This document shows positions 15,468-64,000 of a stretch of 64,000 bases of DNA, piece after piece (the stretch's first letter is position 1; every line of letters begins with the position of its first letter). The notes under the pieces were generated by a model. The model saw nothing but the letters and a program-made list of their open reading frames with translations, did not search any database and was not told the DNA's origin. Position numbers and translations under genes: made by a program. This DNA comes from Minisyncoccota bacterium (GTDB lineage Bacteria; Patescibacteriota; Minisyncoccia; Phycocordibacterales; UBA9973), in contig JAGOUX010000001.1 in the NCBI GenBank assembly GCA_018061035.1, positions 6,817 through 70,816 of the forward strand. Reading direction: 5' to 3'.

Positions 15468-16448
15468 CTACCCTAAAGTAGCCAAAAAATCATTAGTTAT
15501 AGTTTCGATCTCAGATGCAGTATTTGCTTCCATCAGCTTAACTCGGAGTTCCTTTGCCCCATCAAAATTATTAACATAAGCTTTGTAGTGCTTCTTCATG
15601 ATTGCAAAGTTCTTGTATCCACCAAGTTTCTCTTCGAATAATTTTGTATGTTCGACCATGACTCGTAATTTCTCCTCTACCGACGGTACTTTTGTAAAGG
15701 ACTGTCCTTTACAAGAAAATAGCCAGGGGTTGCCAAAGATAGCTCTACCGAGCATAACACCATCACAACCAGTATCTGCAACTTTTTTCTCAGCATCAGA
15801 GATATCAAGAGCATCGCCATTGCCGAAAATGAGAGTATCTTTCTTCATTTCATCGCGAATAGCTAAGACATCCTTCATCAAGTCCCAGTGAGCTGGAACT
15901 AGAGACATTTCTTTTCGAGTACGAAGGTGAACTGTGAGCACTGCTATATCTTCTGACAATAGTTCGCGAATCCATGTATCTATCTCATTTTTATTATATC
16001 CAATGCGAGTCTTTACCGATATTGGCAATCCTTGACCTCCTTCGATGGCAGCACGAATAACCTCGCGGGCAAGCTTGGGATCTTTCATCATCGCTGCTCC
16101 TGCGCATTGCTTCTCAATGCTTTTATCGGGACAACCCATATTAATATCAATACCATCAAAACCAAGCTCCTTGCAGAGTTTTGCAGCTTCGCGGATATTC
16201 TCAGGCTTGCCTCCAAATATCTGCGCTACAATCGGGTGCTCATTAGGGCTAAATTTTAAATCAATCAGAAGTTTTTCGCGTGCCTGAAGGTGGGCTAATC
16301 CATCAGCAGAGACAAATTCAGTCCAGAATACATCAGGCTTCCCATATTTGTTTATAATCTCTCTAAACACACAATCCGTAACATCAGCCATAGGCGCTAG
16401 CACCATTATTGGTTTATTAAGTTTTGCCCAAAATCCTAAATTGCTCAT
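15468..16448 (-). CDS. tRNA-dihydrouridine synthase
   Basis: LAPMADVTDCVFRE and DINMGCP motifs of the Dus family; carries an in-frame palindromic insert (see findings). Confidence 0.85.
   Translation of the reverse strand: MSNLGFWAKLNKPIMVLAPMADVTDCVFREIINKYGKPDVFWTEFVSADGLAHLQAREKLLIDLKFSPNEHPIVAQIFGGKPENIREAAKLCKELGFDGIDINMGCPDKSIEKQCAGAAMMKDPKLAREVIRAAIEGGQGLPISVKTRIGYNKNEIDTWIRELLSEDIAVLTVHLRTRKEMSLVPAHWDLMKDVLAIRDEMKKDTLIFGNGDALDISDAEKKVADTGCDGVMLGRAIFGNPWLFSCKGQSFTKVPSVEEKLRVMVEHTKLFEEKLGGYKNFAIMKKHYKAYVNNFDGAKELRVKLMEANTASEIETITNDFLATLG
15691..15714. repeat. 24-bp perfect palindrome TTTGTAAAGGACTGTCCTTTACAA inside the dus CDS
   Basis: Identical to 38471-38494 inside rsmI; in frame, encoding CKGQSFT. 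Confidence 0.85.
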
Positions 16449-19593: not shown

Positions 19594-19713
19594 ATGAATC
19601 CCGTTAGAAGCCGCGGTCGCATTCATTTCAAAATAAATGCTTTTACTAATATCAAAAAAATTATTACTATAAAAAAGCTTAACCGCGGTGTTACAACCGC
19701 GACCTGCTTCTAA
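19594..19713 (+). other. Upstream ORF within MITE copy 1 (39 aa, MNPVRSRGR...TATCF)
   Basis: ATG supplied by the left TSD copy, open through the element, TAA inside the right TIR 5 nt before the topA ATG. Confidence 0.45.
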
Positions 19714-19718
19714 ACGGG
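19599..19718 (+). mobile_element. MITE-like element, copy 1 (between the topA promoter and the topA start)
   Basis: TIRs CCCGTTAGAAGCCGCGGTCGC / GCGACCTGCTTCTAAACGGG; 5-bp direct repeat ATGAA at 19594-19598 and 19719-19723. Confidence 0.7.
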
Positions 19719-21959: not shown

Positions 21960-23432
21960 ATGGAACAAACTATCAAGGAAATACTTGATCTCAACGGAAA
22001 CATGAATCCGAAGGAAATAGAGCTTATCAAAAAAGCCTACCAATTCGCGGAAAAGGCTCATTTTGGGCAGAAAAGAATGAACGGTGACCCATATTTTGTT
22101 CATGTACTTGAAACTGCCAAAATATTGGCGAAGCTGGGTATGGACTCTCAAACCATCGCAGCTGGTTTTTTACATGATGTACTTGAGGACACAGAAACAA
22201 CCGAGGAATCAATGCATAAGGAATTTGGAGGTGACATTGTATTTCTAGTGAATGGGGTCACGAAATTGGGAACACTCAAATACCGTGGACATGAAAGACA
22301 CGTTGAATCATTGCGTAAATTTTTTATCGCTATGGCTCTCGACCTGCGTGTAGTCATTATCAAATTTGCCGATAGATTGCACAATCTAAGAACCTTGCAA
22401 TACGTGCGTGAAGACAAAAGAGAACGAATTGCTCTTGAATCAATCGAAGTATACGCCCCACTAGCCAATAGGCTCGGTATGGGTAAATTGAAAGGCGACA
22501 TCGAGGATGCTGCCTTCCCTTTCGCTTTTCCAAAAGAGTACGCTGAAGTAGAGAACCTAATCAAAAACGAAAAAGAAAAATATGGTAAGTATCTCGAAGA
22601 AGTATCTCAAGAGCTGAACAAAGAACTTCAAAAAAATAAAATCAAAGTTGATGAAATCAGCTATCGCATAAAACATAAATATAGCTTATACAAAAAATTA
22701 CAACGGTATGATATGGATATCAGCAAAATATTCGACGTGGTAGCTCTCAGAGTCGTTGTCGACAACATAGAAGAATGCTACCGGGTACTTGGCTTGGTTC
22801 ACTCTATTTGGAATCCACTTCCTGGTAGGATAAAGGACTACATCGCTGTCCCAAAGCCAAATGGATACCGATCTATTCACACAACTATTTTTACTGGGTT
22901 GGGTGGTATAGCAGAAATTCAAATTCGAACCAAAGAAATGCATGCAGAAGCAGCTTATGGTATCGCTGCGCATTTTGCATACAAGGAAAATAGTAATAGC
23001 AAAAATAAACCAACTGACAATTCAAAATTTAAGTGGATTGAAGAGCTCAAGGAATTAAATTATTCCCCTGATGAACCAAAAAAATTTCTCGAGCACCTAC
23101 GTATGGATTTTTTTAATGATCGAATATTCGTCTTTACACCAAAAGGTGATGTTATAGATCTCCCAGACAATTCTACTCCCATTGATTTCGCATACAACAT
23201 TCACTCTGATGTTGGTGACCATGCACTAAGTGCAAAAATAAATGGCAAGATGTCCCAACTAACCACAGCGCTTAAAAATGGAGATATCGTTGATATTGCA
23301 GTCAACAAAAAAGCTCATCCGACAACCAAATGGTTAGAATCTGTAAAAACTAGTATAGCTAAAAAACACATCAAATCTTATCTCGAAAAGAATAGTCTTC
23401 TCGCTAGACTAAAATCTTTTGGGAGATCTTAA
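21960..23432 (+). CDS. (p)ppGpp synthetase/hydrolase (Rel/SpoT homolog)
   Basis: HD hydrolase domain (LHDVLEDT), RelA/SpoT synthetase domain and a TGS-like C-terminus; 490 aa, no ACT domain. Confidence 0.85.
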   Translation: MEQTIKEILDLNGNMNPKEIELIKKAYQFAEKAHFGQKRMNGDPYFVHVLETAKILAKLGMDSQTIAAGFLHDVLEDTETTEESMHKEFGGDIVFLVNGVTKLGTLKYRGHERHVESLRKFFIAMALDLRVVIIKFADRLHNLRTLQYVREDKRERIALESIEVYAPLANRLGMGKLKGDIEDAAFPFAFPKEYAEVENLIKNEKEKYGKYLEEVSQELNKELQKNKIKVDEISYRIKHKYSLYKKLQRYDMDISKIFDVVALRVVVDNIEECYRVLGLVHSIWNPLPGRIKDYIAVPKPNGYRSIHTTIFTGLGGIAEIQIRTKEMHAEAAYGIAAHFAYKENSNSKNKPTDNSKFKWIEELKELNYSPDEPKKFLEHLRMDFFNDRIFVFTPKGDVIDLPDNSTPIDFAYNIHSDVGDHALSAKINGKMSQLTTALKNGDIVDIAVNKKAHPTTKWLESVKTSIAKKHIKSYLEKNSLLARLKSFGRS

Positions 23433-24442
23433 ACGCTAAAATTAGAGATATTGTAGAGATTTGAATCGTCCTCCTTGATTTCATCTTTTGTTCGATCGTC
23501 CACTGGCGCTTCTTCTGTTGGTTGTGGAGAAGTGTCTCCTGTTGTGTCAGTGCCGACAACTTGTGTAGCAAGATTGGCAATGTGGTTTTCCATCATATCT
23601 TCTGGTTTCTTTTCTGCCGTAGACTTCTGTATTAAGTCCAAAATCTGACGAAGATCATCGGTGGAGAAATAATCAATCTTGATCTGTCCACCAAGTTCTT
23701 TGCGGTCAATGTGTACTCTAGTACCGAGCTTCTCTTGGAATTCTTCTTCGAGTTCTGTAATCTCTGGATCAGGCATGAATTCTTTTTTACGAACTCGATC
23801 ATATGCTATCTTGCGAGCCAAACGTTCAGCCTCTCTCACTGTAATCTTCTTGTAGACAATCTCTTTAAATAAAACTAACTGCTCTTCTGGGTGATCAGCG
23901 AGCATGAGTATCGGCCTGGTATGACCTTCGGTTATTTTTCCCTCAGACAATCCATTCAATATTTCTTCGGGTAATGCAAGGATACGAAGAGAATTAGAAA
24001 CATATTCTCGACTTCGTCCCATTTTCTTGGCAATTTCGGCATGAGTGAATTTGAACTCGGAGGCAAGTCGAAAAAATGCTCGAGCTCGGTCAACTGCATT
24101 GAGATCTTCGCGCTGAAGATTCTCAATAATGGCAAGCTCGAGCTTCATCATTGATGTATCACCTACTCGGATGATAGCCGGCACCTGAGTCACACCAGCG
24201 AGCTTGGCTGCGCGCAAACGGCGCTCTCCAGCGATAAGTTCATACTCAGTACTTAATCCGCCTTCTTCTTTTTCAACTTCTACTCTAGAAACAGTGAGAG
24301 GCTGAAGAACTCCATACTGTTTGATTGAGAGAGCTAGGTCTTCTAGACGTGCTTCGTCGAATTCACGTCTAGGTTGGTATGGATTCGGCTTGATCTTATC
24401 GGTGTCGATCCAGAAAATTGAATTGGAATATAGGTTGGACAT
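23429..24442 (-). CDS. parB: ParB/Spo0J-family partition protein
   Basis: ParB box GERRLRAAK, HTH region, acidic C-terminal tail. Confidence 0.8.
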   Translation of the reverse strand: MSNLYSNSIFWIDTDKIKPNPYQPRREFDEARLEDLALSIKQYGVLQPLTVSRVEVEKEEGGLSTEYELIAGERRLRAAKLAGVTQVPAIIRVGDTSMMKLELAIIENLQREDLNAVDRARAFFRLASEFKFTHAEIAKKMGRSREYVSNSLRILALPEEILNGLSEGKITEGHTRPILMLADHPEEQLVLFKEIVYKKITVREAERLARKIAYDRVRKKEFMPDPEITELEEEFQEKLGTRVHIDRKELGGQIKIDYFSTDDLRQILDLIQKSTAEKKPEDMMENHIANLATQVVGTDTTGDTSPQPTEEAPVDDRTKDEIKEDDSNLYNISNFSV

Positions 24443-24483
24443 GAAATGATTTTAACATATTAAAAAATATTTCGACAATTGAT

Positions 24484-24555
24484 CCCGTTAGAGATTATGT
24501 TAATTACTTGGGGAATAAAAGGTCAATTTTTATATATTTCTGGATCTCTAACGGG
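24484..24555. mobile_element. MITE-like element, copy 5 (short subfamily)
   Basis: Perfect 12-bp TIRs CCCGTTAGAGAT / ATCTCTAACGGG with a perfect 6-bp TSD ATTGAT at 24478-24483 and 24556-24561. Confidence 0.7.
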
Positions 24556-24604
24556 ATTGATTTTGAGTATAAATATGTGTATCATATGTGGATTAGCCCC
24601 TATT

Positions 24605-24688
24605 GCCCAGGTGGCGGAATTGGTAGACGCGATAGACTCAAAATCTATTGTTGGCAACAACATGAGAGTTCGATTCTCTCCCTGGGCA
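24605..24688 (+). tRNA. tRNA-Leu (anticodon CAA)
   Basis: Hand fold: acceptor GCCCAGG/CCUGGGC, anticodon loop CUCAAAA, long variable arm, T-arm GAGAG-UUCGAUU-CUCUC; 84 nt. Confidence 0.85.
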
Positions 24689-24783
24689 CAGAAACAGTAA
24701 ATTTATTTACTGTTGTGGAGAGATCGAAAGGATTTTCGTTGTTGAATGAAATGAAACCGAAAATCACCCGGCTAAGTAATAGC

Positions 24784-24806
24784 CGATTCTCTCCCTGGGC
24801 ACAGAG
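24784..24806 (+). repeat. Direct repeat of the tRNA-Leu 3' end (identical to 24671-24693)
   Basis: CGATTCTCTCCCTGGGCACAGA is repeated 113 bp downstream. Confidence 0.8.
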
Positions 24807-26143: not shown

Positions 26144-26223
26144 CCCGTTAGAAATTCTATGATTGGAAACTTTACTAAAAGTGATATAACAATGGAAATG
26201 CGAAGCATTTCCTATTTCTAACG
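26144..26223 (+). mobile_element. MITE-like element, copy 6 (short TIR, between murA and miaA)
   Basis: TIRs CCCGTTAGAAAT / ATTTCTAACG, no clear TSD; the reading frame CCC GTT AGA ... TTC TAA is open throughout. Confidence 0.55.
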
Positions 26224-26225
26224 TG

Positions 26226-27108: not shown

Positions 27109-27189
27109 ATGGATTCCGTTAGAAGCCGCGGTCGCAATTACAATCAAATAACCTTAAGTAGTCTCGGTCTGACCGCGACCTGCTTCTAA
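27109..27189 (+). other. Upstream ORF within MITE copy 2 (26 aa, MDSVRSRGR...TATCF)
   Basis: Starts at the ATG of the left TSD copy and ends at a TAA in the right TIR 4 nt before the murI ATG. Confidence 0.45.
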
Positions 27190-27192
27190 CGG
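27115..27192 (+). mobile_element. MITE-like element, copy 2 (inserted at the murI start codon)
   Basis: TIRs CCGTTAGAAGCCGCGGTCGC / GACCGCGACCTGCTTCTAACGG; 7-bp TSD GATGGAT at 27108-27114 and 27193-27199. Confidence 0.75.
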
Positions 27193-27193
27193 G

Positions 27194-35707: not shown

Positions 35708-35821
35708 CCCGTTAGAAGCAGGTCACGGTTGAATAACCGTGATTTAGCTTGATTATCTTATTAAATTTTTGAAGTTTGATTATCATTTTTTCTTAATATT
35801 GTGACCACTATTTCTAACGGG
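35708..35821. mobile_element. MITE-like element, copy 3 (abutting the mreB start codon)
   Basis: TIRs CCCGTTAGAAGCAGGTCACGG / TGTGACCACTATTTCTAACGGG; perfect 6-bp TSD ACCCAT at 35702-35707 and 35822-35827. Confidence 0.7.
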
Positions 35822-38112: not shown

Positions 38113-38802
38113 CTAAGACACAATTACAGTAAATTCCCCTCTTTGCTTTTCAGTATTTTTTACAAAATATTCGAGAACTTCGGCAGGAGTGCCAGTTTTA
38201 AATTCCTCATATATTTTTGTAAGTTCACGGGCAACACACACCTTCTTCTCTGGGCAAAATTTTATTAACGATTCCAAAGTTTTTAAAATTCTGTGGGGAG
38301 ATTCATAAAACACCATTGTCCGCTCTGATGATGCTATTTCTTTAAATAATGTTTCTCTACCCTTTTTGTGCGGTAAAAATCCAAGAAAAGTAAATTCATG
38401 AGTCGGAAGTCCTGAAGCCGAAAGCGCGGTGATCACAGCAGAAGCTCCAGGTATAGGCACCACCTCCACATTTGTAAAGGACTGTCCTTTACAAAATTTT
38501 TCTTTTATTTGTGAGACAAGCATGGCCCCTGGGTCAGATATGCCTGGCGTGCCTGCGTCTGAAACCAATGCCAAATCTTTACCTTCCTCAAGCATTTCAA
38601 AAATTTTATCTGTCTTGGACAACTTACTCTGCGCGTGGTAGCTCATAGTAGGCTTGCTGATAGCGTATTTATTTAAAAGATTTTTAGTTGTACGGGTGTC
38701 TTCGCAGAGTATTAGATCCACACTTTTAAGCGTTTCAATTGCCCGAAGAGTGATATCTCCCATATTGCCTATTGGTGTCGCTATTACATAAAATTTAGAC
38801 AT
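38113..38802 (-). CDS. rsmI: 16S rRNA 2'-O-methyltransferase RsmI-like (tetrapyrrole-methylase fold)
   Basis: N-terminus LYVIATPIGNMGDITLRAIETL; carries the same in-frame palindromic insert as dus. Confidence 0.8.
   Translation of the reverse strand: MSKFYVIATPIGNMGDITLRAIETLKSVDLILCEDTRTTKNLLNKYAISKPTMSYHAQSKLSKTDKIFEMLEEGKDLALVSDAGTPGISDPGAMLVSQIKEKFCKGQSFTNVEVVPIPGASAVITALSASGLPTHEFTFLGFLPHKKGRETLFKEIASSERTMVFYESPHRILKTLESLIKFCPEKKVCVARELTKIYEEFKTGTPAEVLEYFVKNTEKQRGEFTVIVS
38471..38494. repeat. Same 24-bp palindrome inside the rsmI CDS
   Basis: Identical sequence; encodes CKGQSFTN on the minus strand. Confidence 0.85.
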
Positions 38803-43182: not shown

Positions 43183-43258
43183 CCCATTATAAATTTTAAT
43201 TAATAATCTTTCATTATTTTATCCTGCCCGTTCAATTTATAACGGGTCAAGTATAATT

Positions 43259-52281: not shown

Positions 52282-52400
52282 TCCGTTAGAGATAGAAAAT
52301 CTTTAGATTTTCGTAATTAAATTACTCCTAATAAACAAAATAACCAATTCGATTAGTTATTATTCATGAATTCCATTAAACCAATAGATCTCTAACAGAA
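52282..52400. mobile_element. MITE-like element, copy 7 (abutting the rpmE start codon)
   Basis: TIRs TCCGTTAGAGAT / ATCTCTAACAGA (one mismatch); 5-bp TSD TTCAT at 52277-52281 and 52401-52405. Confidence 0.65.
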
Positions 52401-57789: not shown

Positions 57790-57905
57790 TCCGTTAGAGG
57801 CAGGTCGCGATCTTCGCTTCCTGTAAATTATTTATAATGTAGTTAGTAGTAATAATGTTATTAATTAATCTTAATGGTATTTTGTGACCGCGGCCTCTAA
57901 CGGAA
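57790..57905 (-). mobile_element. MITE-like element, copy 4 (abutting the fba start codon)
   Basis: TIRs CCGTTAGAGGCAGGTCGCGA / TGTGACCGCGGCCTCTAACGG; 5-bp TSD TTCAT at 57785-57789 and 57906-57910. Confidence 0.7.
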
Positions 57906-63654: not shown

Positions 63655-64000
63655 ACAAGAAGATAGGGTGGCGACCACACGGTCGCCACCCTCGCGAGAA
63701 AATATATCAAGCACCGAAGAGCATATGCCCGATCGGTGCTTTCTTCGTTTTACCCTTAATGTGCTAAAATATATGGACTTGTCCCGTTATAAATTTAGCT
63801 CGCGGGATTTTGTAAATAAAGATTATTAATTAAAATTTATAATGGGATGCAAATTATTTGGATATTATTGGGAGTTATCGCAGGAGGCCTAGTAGCATAT
63901 GCTATCCTAGGAAAAAAGAGAGATGATTCAAATGGAGCCAAGGATCAATCCTTACTTCTTCTTCAGCAACAAATGGCCGAGCTCGCGAGAGCCCTTGATT

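Follow-up and report, generated by a model that had tools for sequence, protein, structure and literature searches.

The Correia element (CREE/NEMIS) is a small, non-coding, multi-copy element whose terminal inverted repeats form a hairpin; it is flanked by a short duplication, lies mostly upstream of genes, is co-transcribed and depends on an enzyme acting in trans (PMC10969869). Much of this description also applies to an unnamed family of elements, defined in this analysis as the CPR 'CCCGTTAGA' start-codon hairpin family, whose members are small, non-coding and multi-copy, with terminal inverted repeats forming a long hairpin, a short target duplication and a position mostly just upstream of genes. 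However, the target duplication of the Correia element is TA, its repeats measure 26 bp and are unrelated in sequence, and it is found at variable distances from genes in either orientation, whereas members of the CPR family directly adjoin the start codon with no base in between, share a single orientation and themselves provide the codon's first base. The copy of main concern here lies at 24478-24561, between parB and a tRNA-Leu gene, in the window, i.e., the whole 64-kb stretch of DNA that was analysed.

REPINs, REP doublets mobilised by RAYT transposases, are also hairpins of about 100 nt in which two inverted arms, better conserved than the loop, enclose a variable spacer, and they too multiply within a genome while carrying no gene of their own. 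They differ from the CPR family in that they have no target duplication, that each REP is itself palindromic with a GTAG-type head, and that they are extragenic with no start-codon precision. A REP/REPIN identity was rejected for the element studied here, since it has a duplication and arms that are not self-palindromes, and since none of the window proteins searched has a Y1 transposase domain. Rickettsia palindromic elements (RPEs) are selfish palindromic repeats in or at coding sequences, tolerated because the gene stays translatable, and in this they resemble the CPR family. RPEs, however, lie in frame inside ORFs and are translated into protein, whereas the frame opened by the duplicated ATG of the CPR family stops inside the element and the gene restarts at the rebuilt ATG.

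Integron attC sites share with the family an imperfect hairpin with a conserved base, extrahelical bases and a variable loop, as well as a position between one stop codon and the following start codon and a fixed orientation. They read RYYYAAC...GTTRRRY, as against GTTAGA...TCTAAC in the CPR family, and both a cassette array and an integrase are absent, which led to the rejection of this identity. Elements derived from IS200/IS605 (PATEs) were set aside too, as they lack terminal inverted repeats and duplication and have separate subterminal hairpins, whereas the parB/tRNA-Leu element has perfect inverted repeats and a duplication; so was an intrinsic terminator (a GC-rich stem followed by a T run), as a terminator scan gave no site at 24478-24561. 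The CCC termini and a 4-bp duplication are presumably reminiscent of piggyBac/IS1380 elements. A more conceptual likeness exists with mobile translational-bypass inserts, such as the gap of phage T4 gene 60 and the mitochondrial 'byps' (10.1101/2022.08.31.505936; PMC5009743), where a mobile structured insert lies between matching take-off and landing codons and the host gene still yields protein. In the CPR family the matching codons are start codons, so that ordinary initiation or re-initiation at the second ATG would suffice. The CPR hairpin family is MITE-like, and each of the closest known systems differs from it in a defining feature.

The Element Between parB and tRNA-Leu

The host is a tiny groundwater (CPR) bacterium and the G+C content of the window is about 40%. 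Genes around the insertion are relA/spoT, parB, tRNA-Leu, murA, miaA, and murI; the MurA protein is on record as Candidatus Pacebacteria. The parB gene (23429-24442, reverse strand) encodes a 337-aa protein with the Pfam domains ParB_N, HTH_ParB, and ParB_C, and the tRNA-Leu(CAA) gene, identified by a tRNA search, occupies 24605-24689 on the forward strand.

Between them, the window reads ATTGAT / CCCGTTAGAGAT / 48 nt / ATCTCTAACGGG / ATTGAT, with ...CGACA before the left ATTGAT and TTTGAG... after the right one. The left direct repeat spans 24478-24483, with its core TTGA at 24479-24482 (window sequence, alignment and junction analysis), and is followed by the left terminal inverted repeat CCCGTTAGAGAT (24484-24495, forward strand). 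An AT-rich interior, or loop, of 48 nt (24496-24543), delimited by copy comparison and folding, has no similarity to the interiors of other family copies. The right terminal inverted repeat ATCTCTAACGGG (24544-24555, forward strand), found like the left one by a repeat search, precedes the right direct repeat (24556-24561), whose core TTGA at 24557-24560 is defined by the window sequence, the promoter scan and the alignment. T24483 and A24556 are probably the terminal bases of the element itself.

An initial, sequence-only reading of this DNA had described perfect 12-bp terminal inverted repeats with ATTGAT on both flanks, located 41 nt from the parB ATG (24442) and 49 nt from tRNA-Leu (24605); repeats and flanks are both found in the sequence, and the two distances are right. 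The inverted repeat is perfect at 12/12 positions, or 14/14 when the adjoining AT is counted, and thus runs 14 bp rather than 12 because the inner AT of each ATTGAT pairs too. Two further statements of that reading were confirmed, namely that the CCC-GTT-AGA frame of this copy has no TAA and, by repeat comparison, that it shares a short inverted-repeat subtype with the copy at 52282-52399 (TCCGTTAGAGAT / ATCTCTAACAGA).

The element is 72 bp long and the sole ORF that crosses it is spurious, running on through the tRNA. Its termini, T-CCCGTTAGAG ... CTCTAACGGG-A, fit the family consensus T-CCCGTTAGAR ... YTCTAACGGG-A, and it is of the short-arm subtype, i.e., without the inner stem of the long arms (GCCGCGGTCGC / GACCGCGACCT) and without the ACCU bulge; similar short-arm copies are present at L101, L134, L212, and L042. 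With at most one mismatch, the 12-mer arm occurs 5 times in the window against 0.20 expected, and its 8-mer core CCGTTAGA occurs 11 times against 1.37 expected, a count reached by no shuffle. Folded as a single strand, the element is more stable than its shuffled versions (z = -4.6 for DNA and -4.1 for RNA). Like prokaryotic MITEs generically, it is shorter than about 500 bp, non-coding, bounded by terminal inverted repeats and present in dispersed copies, and its target-site duplication is verified against the empty site (see below). All this makes it very probable that the sequence is a 72-74-bp non-autonomous, hairpin-forming MITE-like element, of a family abundant in Patescibacteria (CPR), that was inserted in this lineage with a 4-6 bp duplication.

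Empty Sites in Related Species

A scan of species-representative genomes for ParB yielded 80 loci, all in Candidatus Nomurabacteria / Paceibacterota / Patescibacteria MAGs and with 79-85% ParB identity; the 76 related species whose locus has at least 170 nt upstream of parB formed the empty-site census. The family arm pair is found upstream of parB in none of these 76 species. According to the sequence-only reading, insertion would be contradicted if element-free orthologous loci lacked a single ATTGAT; run on the relatives, this comparison leaves the claim standing, as 48 of the 76 carry a single AATTGAT, in 39 cases at a distance of 32-37 nt from the parB ATG that matches the offset in the window, and TTGAT is present in 16 more.

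In the relatives, the spacer between the two genes runs from the parB -10 box (on the reverse strand) through AATTGATTTTGAG and TGTGTAGAATGTGTG to the tRNA. When the window and 14 relatives are aligned with MAFFT, an invariant AATTGAT is followed by a 78-column gap in 14/14 relatives and then by T; the 78 nt correspond to the 72-nt element and one 6-nt repeat. Insertion into the window's lineage is the parsimonious reading of the compared sequences, with the caveat that the empty sites all come from other species. Two strains were found through the RelA/SpoT neighbour. L081, on a 5.2-kb contig (GCA_020047435.1) that is 99.96% identical, has the element unchanged, both mismatches being elsewhere, and the contig of L082 (98.8% identical) stops short of the insertion site; the strains found in this way hence provide no within-species empty allele. 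An exact look-up found no identical ParB protein on record, and a plasmid BLAST with the insertion region gave no match.

The parB/tRNA-Leu copy had been presented as the cleanest evidence that the family transposes. The empty sites do support mobility, but the copy is not the sole one with such proof, since the topA copy has an empty site too. At the topA start, about 50 relatives are empty with a single ATGAAA, reading GTGTAATACT, 7-10 nt and ATGAAATTA; the window and L012 have a long-arm copy there, both with an odd TCTAAACGGG end, and in L042 the same ATGAA holds a short-arm copy of 64 nt. As several nearer relatives lack any copy at topA, either this is a hot spot struck repeatedly or an old copy was precisely lost. 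The empty site of the miaA copy is not clean, as L069 has 10 other nucleotides at the position of the element. The parB/tRNA-Leu copy, taken with its relatives, demonstrates mobility at the DNA level for a family that targets start codons.

Two other sequences were seen ahead of topA. A CTAG-rich repeat (...taggttctagtttctagg...ctagcaactag...) of about 70-100 nt is located between the conserved topA promoter and the ATG in L026, L050, L069, L074, L078, and L013, and L038 has a remnant, TATCTAACGGGA, 14 nt before the topA ATG. The leader of topA thus looks like a hot spot for insertions.

Two Predicted Promoters Survive the Insertion

The promoters of parB and tRNA-Leu are consensus predictions. 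On the reverse strand, that of parB (24449-24478) consists of a -35 box TTGTCG (24478-24473), an 18-nt spacer and a TG-extended -10 box TAAAAT (24454-24449); on the forward strand, that of tRNA-Leu (24557-24585) consists of a -35 box TTGATT (24557-24562), a 17-nt spacer and a -10 box TATCAT. The parB -10 box (TG-n-TAAAAT or TAGAAT) is separated from the ATG by 6 nt in the window and in 14/14 aligned relatives, which predicts a leaderless parB mRNA throughout the group. The alignment gives TTGATT, 17 nt and TGTGTAGAAT for the tRNA-Leu promoter of the relatives, whose -35 hexamers for parB and tRNA-Leu are directly back to back (CGACAA|TTGATT-like). In L010 and L073, the conserved TTGATT...TAGAAT promoter, which in other species drives tRNA-Leu, leads into another sequence (...TATTGCCATCTCACAAGCTCGTAACGGCAATTC...) ahead of any tRNA.

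Comparison with the aligned relatives shows that the element entered exactly at the junction of the back-to-back -35 boxes, parB CGACAA | TTGATT tRNA-Leu. The right-hand TTGA together with the native TT restores the tRNA-Leu -35 box TTGATT, and the parB -35 box is left intact; the duplication thereby rebuilt TTGATT and both promoters survive. Both are still predicted by the promoter scan after the insertion and now stand 78 bp further apart. Transcription from either promoter leads away from the element, so that this copy is probably untranscribed and probably functionless. The MITE-like insertion itself is real, its effect here is probably neutral and, taken alone, it is an ordinary small transposon insertion that both promoters survived.

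A Family Attached to Start Codons

The window holds nine family copies, eight of which abut a start codon to the base; the sole exception is the element at 24484-24555, whose nearest start codon, that of parB, is 41 nt away and whose repeat contains neither ATG nor GTG. Three copies on the forward strand abut the ATG of topA (19719; long-arm copy at 19600-19718, with flanks ATGAAT / ATGAAA), miaA (26226; short-arm copy at 26144-26225, in which the duplication is absent), and murI (27194; long-arm copy at 27115-27193, with flanks ATGGAT / ATGGAT). On the reverse strand, copies abut the starts of mreB (35707; copy at 35708-35821, with flanks ACCCAT / ACCCAT), rpmE, encoding ribosomal protein L31 (52281; short-arm copy at 52282-52399), and fba (57789; long-arm copy at 57790-57904). 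Two variant copies abut the atpG start (43182; 43183-43246, reverse strand, arms CCCATTATAAAT / ATTTATAACGGG) and an ATG at 63847 (63783-63846, forward strand, arms CCCGTTATAAAT / ATTTATAATGGG). These two form a 64-nt variant subfamily and are 84% alike, and both are preceded on the gene-distal side by an (A/G)CTTG-like sequence that recurs beside several metagenome copies. The interiors of the window copies have no sequence in common. Nine copies in the 64-kb window compare with one copy (L042) in 630 kb of related species, so that the family has expanded in this genome, in keeping with a lineage-specific burst.

A scan of metagenomes with the exact 19-nt end of one long arm, CCGTTAGARGCAGGTCRCG, returned at least 120 loci, against about 15 matches expected by chance according to a rough estimate. 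Nearly all of the listed matches are elements of about 115 nt, and some measure 78-82 nt. Among the matches listed, one particular arm abuts a start codon in 107 of the 109 distinct copies, with two exceptions, and the searched arm is directly preceded by CAT in 101/109 and by CAC in 6/109; none has the opposite orientation relative to the gene (107:0). About 98% of the sampled copies are thus fixed, in a single orientation, to the first base of housekeeping start codons. The ORFs that start at the abutted codon have a median length of about 200 codons, many being cut by the contig end. Copies were found ahead of topA, mreB, murI, atpG, rpmE, fba, ssb, nusB, and ribosomal protein genes, all of them housekeeping genes, those at metagenome loci being named from N-terminal sequence only.

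The consensus of the 109 copies among the matches listed is T-CCCGTTAGAAGC-CGCGGTCGC ... GACCGCG-ACCT-GCTTCTAACGGG-A; about 22 positions in each arm exceed 90% identity, and the loops are not conserved. The mean folding energy of family copies is about -40 kcal/mol. RNAalifold predicts an outer stem of 13 bp and an inner stem of 6 bp with, between them on the gene-proximal arm, a 4-nt ACCU bulge; at four pairs the arms show compensatory changes, a covariation that subfamily descent can mimic. As a test for selection at the RNA level, G·U against A·C mismatches between the arms show no bias (12 versus 14), a count that carries no information because the search pattern had fixed one arm. Between orthologous copies of different species, the arms are identical, and the loops and neighbouring synonymous sites have diverged, which implies that the arms are constrained or are being homogenised. 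The orthologous groups noted are L103/L112/L126/L172, L120/L129/L133/L212, and L148/L200, ahead of nusB-like, ssb-like, and rpsK-adjacent genes.

The family appears to be widespread in CPR/Patescibacteria metagenomes and, apparently, undescribed. At gathering score, Rfam finds four tRNAs in the whole window and no match to the element, and with one family copy and E-values up to 5 it returns only noise. Full-text searches on the arm sequence, on Patescibacteria MITEs and on start-codon MITEs retrieved no published description, and the recent surveys of prokaryotic MITEs mention neither of the latter two. A scan of viral contigs with a loose arm pattern gave 15 matches, all of them attributable to chance and rejected.

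Junctions and Target Choice

The outermost pair of the element is T...A in 103 copies and C...G in 5, and among the matches listed C...G goes with a GTG start codon for the gene. The base that precedes the gene-distal duplication, which was the start codon's original first base, is A in 73 of these matches, T in 6, G in 2, and C in 2, and the rebuilt start codon is always A/G-TG. Because the terminal T·A covaries with C·G, the element is understood to supply the first base of the rebuilt start codon and to insert at N|TG. Outside T...A, the duplication measures 4 nt in 62 of the 109 copies among the matches listed, 3 nt in 12, 5 nt in 5, 2 nt in 4, and 0 nt in 25. The commonest duplicated 4-mer is TGAA, and the commonest hexamer ahead of the outer (gene-distal) arm is ATGAAT.

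Among the 25 zero-duplication copies, 6 are one-base mismatches of the TGAG/TGAA kind, and in about 9 the stop codon of a long upstream ORF stands directly before T, which implies a native stop/start overlap of the TAATG type. Copies of this stop-T[hairpin]A-TG kind without duplication were noted at L103, L104, L112, L121, L126, L148, L172, L178, and L200. A staggered-cut model has no explanation for this zero-duplication class at TAATG overlaps.

These family-wide junctions modify two descriptions of the parB/tRNA-Leu copy. It had been credited with a perfect 6-bp target-site duplication, and ATTGAT does stand on both sides, but the mechanistic duplication is probably the 4-bp TTGA, as the outer T...A covaries with C...G. 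The two flanks agree over 6 bp because the target happened to read A-TTGA-T before the insertion, and both readings predict the same 78-nt insertion. With 4 nt outside T...A, TTGA falls within the 3-5 nt typical of the family. The site had also been described as one without a start codon. None is there, but the site is not arbitrary, because on the opposite strand it reads ATCAAT, one base from ATGAAT, just as TTGA is TCAA on the other strand and one base from the usual TGAA.

Two other copies are found outside start codons. L204, an independent insertion, is a short-arm copy of the C...G subtype whose duplicated TTGA lies within gcTTGA|TTTTTTTGAGGGATAGTG-TAAACT, a TTGATT -35 box. L206:7774-7839 is a short-arm C...G copy inside a ychF-like ORF at a CTTGAT site, where it appears to be in frame and to add about 22-24 codons in the manner of a Rickettsia palindromic element. 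Since the L204, L206, and parB/tRNA-Leu copies are all outside start codons, a WTGA-like sequence, rather than start-codon function, seems to guide insertion, which argues against translation-coupled models and is the main contribution of the parB/tRNA-Leu copy.

The frame opened by the duplicated, gene-distal ATG encodes M-x-PVRSRGR and terminates either within the loop or at the TAA of TTCTAACGGG, which lies 7 nt ahead of the real ATG. A functional peptide from this frame was considered and rejected, there being no conservation beyond the arm-encoded M-x-PVRSRGR. Upstream of the duplicated ATG, -10-like hexamers peak 6-8 nt away (19/77) and SD-like motifs are rare (5/77), from which many target genes look leaderless. 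The family raises the question of how genes are translated whose AUG stands directly at the base of a hairpin with a folding energy near -40 kcal/mol, the sampled genes rarely having an SD and often being leaderless, in addition to that of how a DNA element finds start codons. A practical consequence is that gene callers will choose the wrong ATG or invent short ORFs at family sites.

Proposed Mechanism of Insertion

In the proposed mechanism, an enzyme encoded elsewhere would recognise the termini (T)CCCGTTAGAR / YTCTAACGGG(A), make a short staggered cut in the target and join the element, and gap repair would then yield the duplication. The normal target of the family would be N|TG at a start codon, mostly A|TGAA, with the terminal A (or G) rebuilding the codon. 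The parB/tRNA-Leu copy would have used a near-cognate TTGA/TCAA site without a start codon, which suggests that targeting relies on DNA sequence and would not need translation.

No autonomous element with the family termini (TCCCGTTAGA) was found in the metagenome loci (at least 120, exact 19-mer query) or in 1.68 Mb of sequence, in a search that extended to arm partners within 6 kb and to all inverted repeats of 13 nt or longer at spacings of 0.7-3.5 kb. It brought up only separate copies lying close by and candidate insertion sequences of unrelated type (L018, L025, and L063), which were rejected as partners. The latter, at L018:2212-3867, L025:1147-3392, and L063:1415-3962, have inverted repeats of 25-86 nt placed 1-1.6 kb apart and would represent unrelated families in related CPR genomes. 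Pfam searches with the window's approximately 60 proteins revealed housekeeping domains only, and no transposase, integrase, HUH, or Y1/RAYT domain.

The terminal repeats and the 3-5-nt duplication are compatible with a DDE-type enzyme that acts in trans. The orientation of 107:0, the compensation between arms, the gene-proximal bulge and the duplication of 0-5 nt are nevertheless atypical for a DDE transposon, and an enzyme that reads the hairpin fits the fixed orientation, the arm covariation, the bulge and the zero-duplication class better. One alternative takes this further by accepting the insertion as real and having the family moved as a folded single-stranded hairpin, by a HUH/RAYT-like nuclease in trans or by an attC-style recombinase that reads extrahelical bases, the duplication being a by-product of repair. 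Compensatory changes that keep the arms paired at four positions speak for it, as do the 4-nt ACCU bulge, conserved and always gene-proximal, the single orientation among the matches listed, a duplication of variable length anchored at N|TG, the identity of orthologous arms while loops and synonymous sites diverge, and the finding of no autonomous insertion sequence in the loci and the 1.68 Mb covered. However, HUH/RAYT transposition leaves no target duplication, yet the parB/tRNA-Leu copy and about 80 others have one; single arms are not REP-like palindromes, the core motif has the polarity opposite to that of attC (GTT...AAC, not AAC...GTT), the window encodes no recognisable Y1/RAYT domain, and the covariation may just reflect subfamily descent. 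On balance, this alternative is the main rival but unlikely.

Far less plausible is the view that the palindrome serves the host, as an operator or cruciform set between the divergent promoters of parB and tRNA-Leu, and is retained for that function. The position exactly between divergent promoters agrees with it, and perfect 14-bp arms could bind a dimeric protein; yet the palindrome is absent from 76/76 related species despite conserved flanking promoter motifs, the same arms are found at eight unrelated start codons of the window, and the element lies upstream of both -35 boxes. That the inverted repeat and its flanking direct repeat arose by chance, in an AT-rich region where short repeats are common, deserves practically no credence in view of the arm counts (5 versus 0.20 expected for the 12-mer and 11 versus 1.37 for the 8-mer core) and of folding z-scores around -4, and is refuted by the empty-site alignment with its indel of exactly 78 nt against 14 orthologous sites.

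Returning to a MITE-like element moved by an enzyme in trans, we tentatively consider, as a possibility of rather modest standing, that the family is a mobile hairpin that homes to start codons. It would enter between the first and second bases of the start codon, restore that codon with the A or G at its own terminus, and be harmless or useful because its hairpin would let ribosomes reach the rebuilt AUG; the enzyme would read the asymmetric folded hairpin, and the parB/tRNA-Leu copy would reflect mis-targeting to a TTGAT -35 box, with homing by DNA sequence (WTGA) and not by translation. Ribosomes might reach the rebuilt AUG with the hairpin looped out between stop and start, or by re-initiation after the short frame that begins at the duplicated AUG; bypass, or processing to a leaderless mRNA, would be further routes.

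Other Repeats in the Window

A perfect 24-nt palindrome, TTTGTAAAGGACTGTCCTTTACAA, is present at 15690-15714 and again at 38472-38496. Next to the insertion, the last 21 nt of tRNA-Leu (CGATTCTCTCCCTGGGCACAG, 24671-24691) are repeated 113 nt downstream, at 24784-24804, just ahead of the murA ATG, and a terminator-like hairpin is located between the two repeats. This repeat of the tRNA-Leu 3' end looks like an att-type remnant of an integrated element, and a second partial match to the tRNA-Leu 3' end also is found in L065, L037, and L006.
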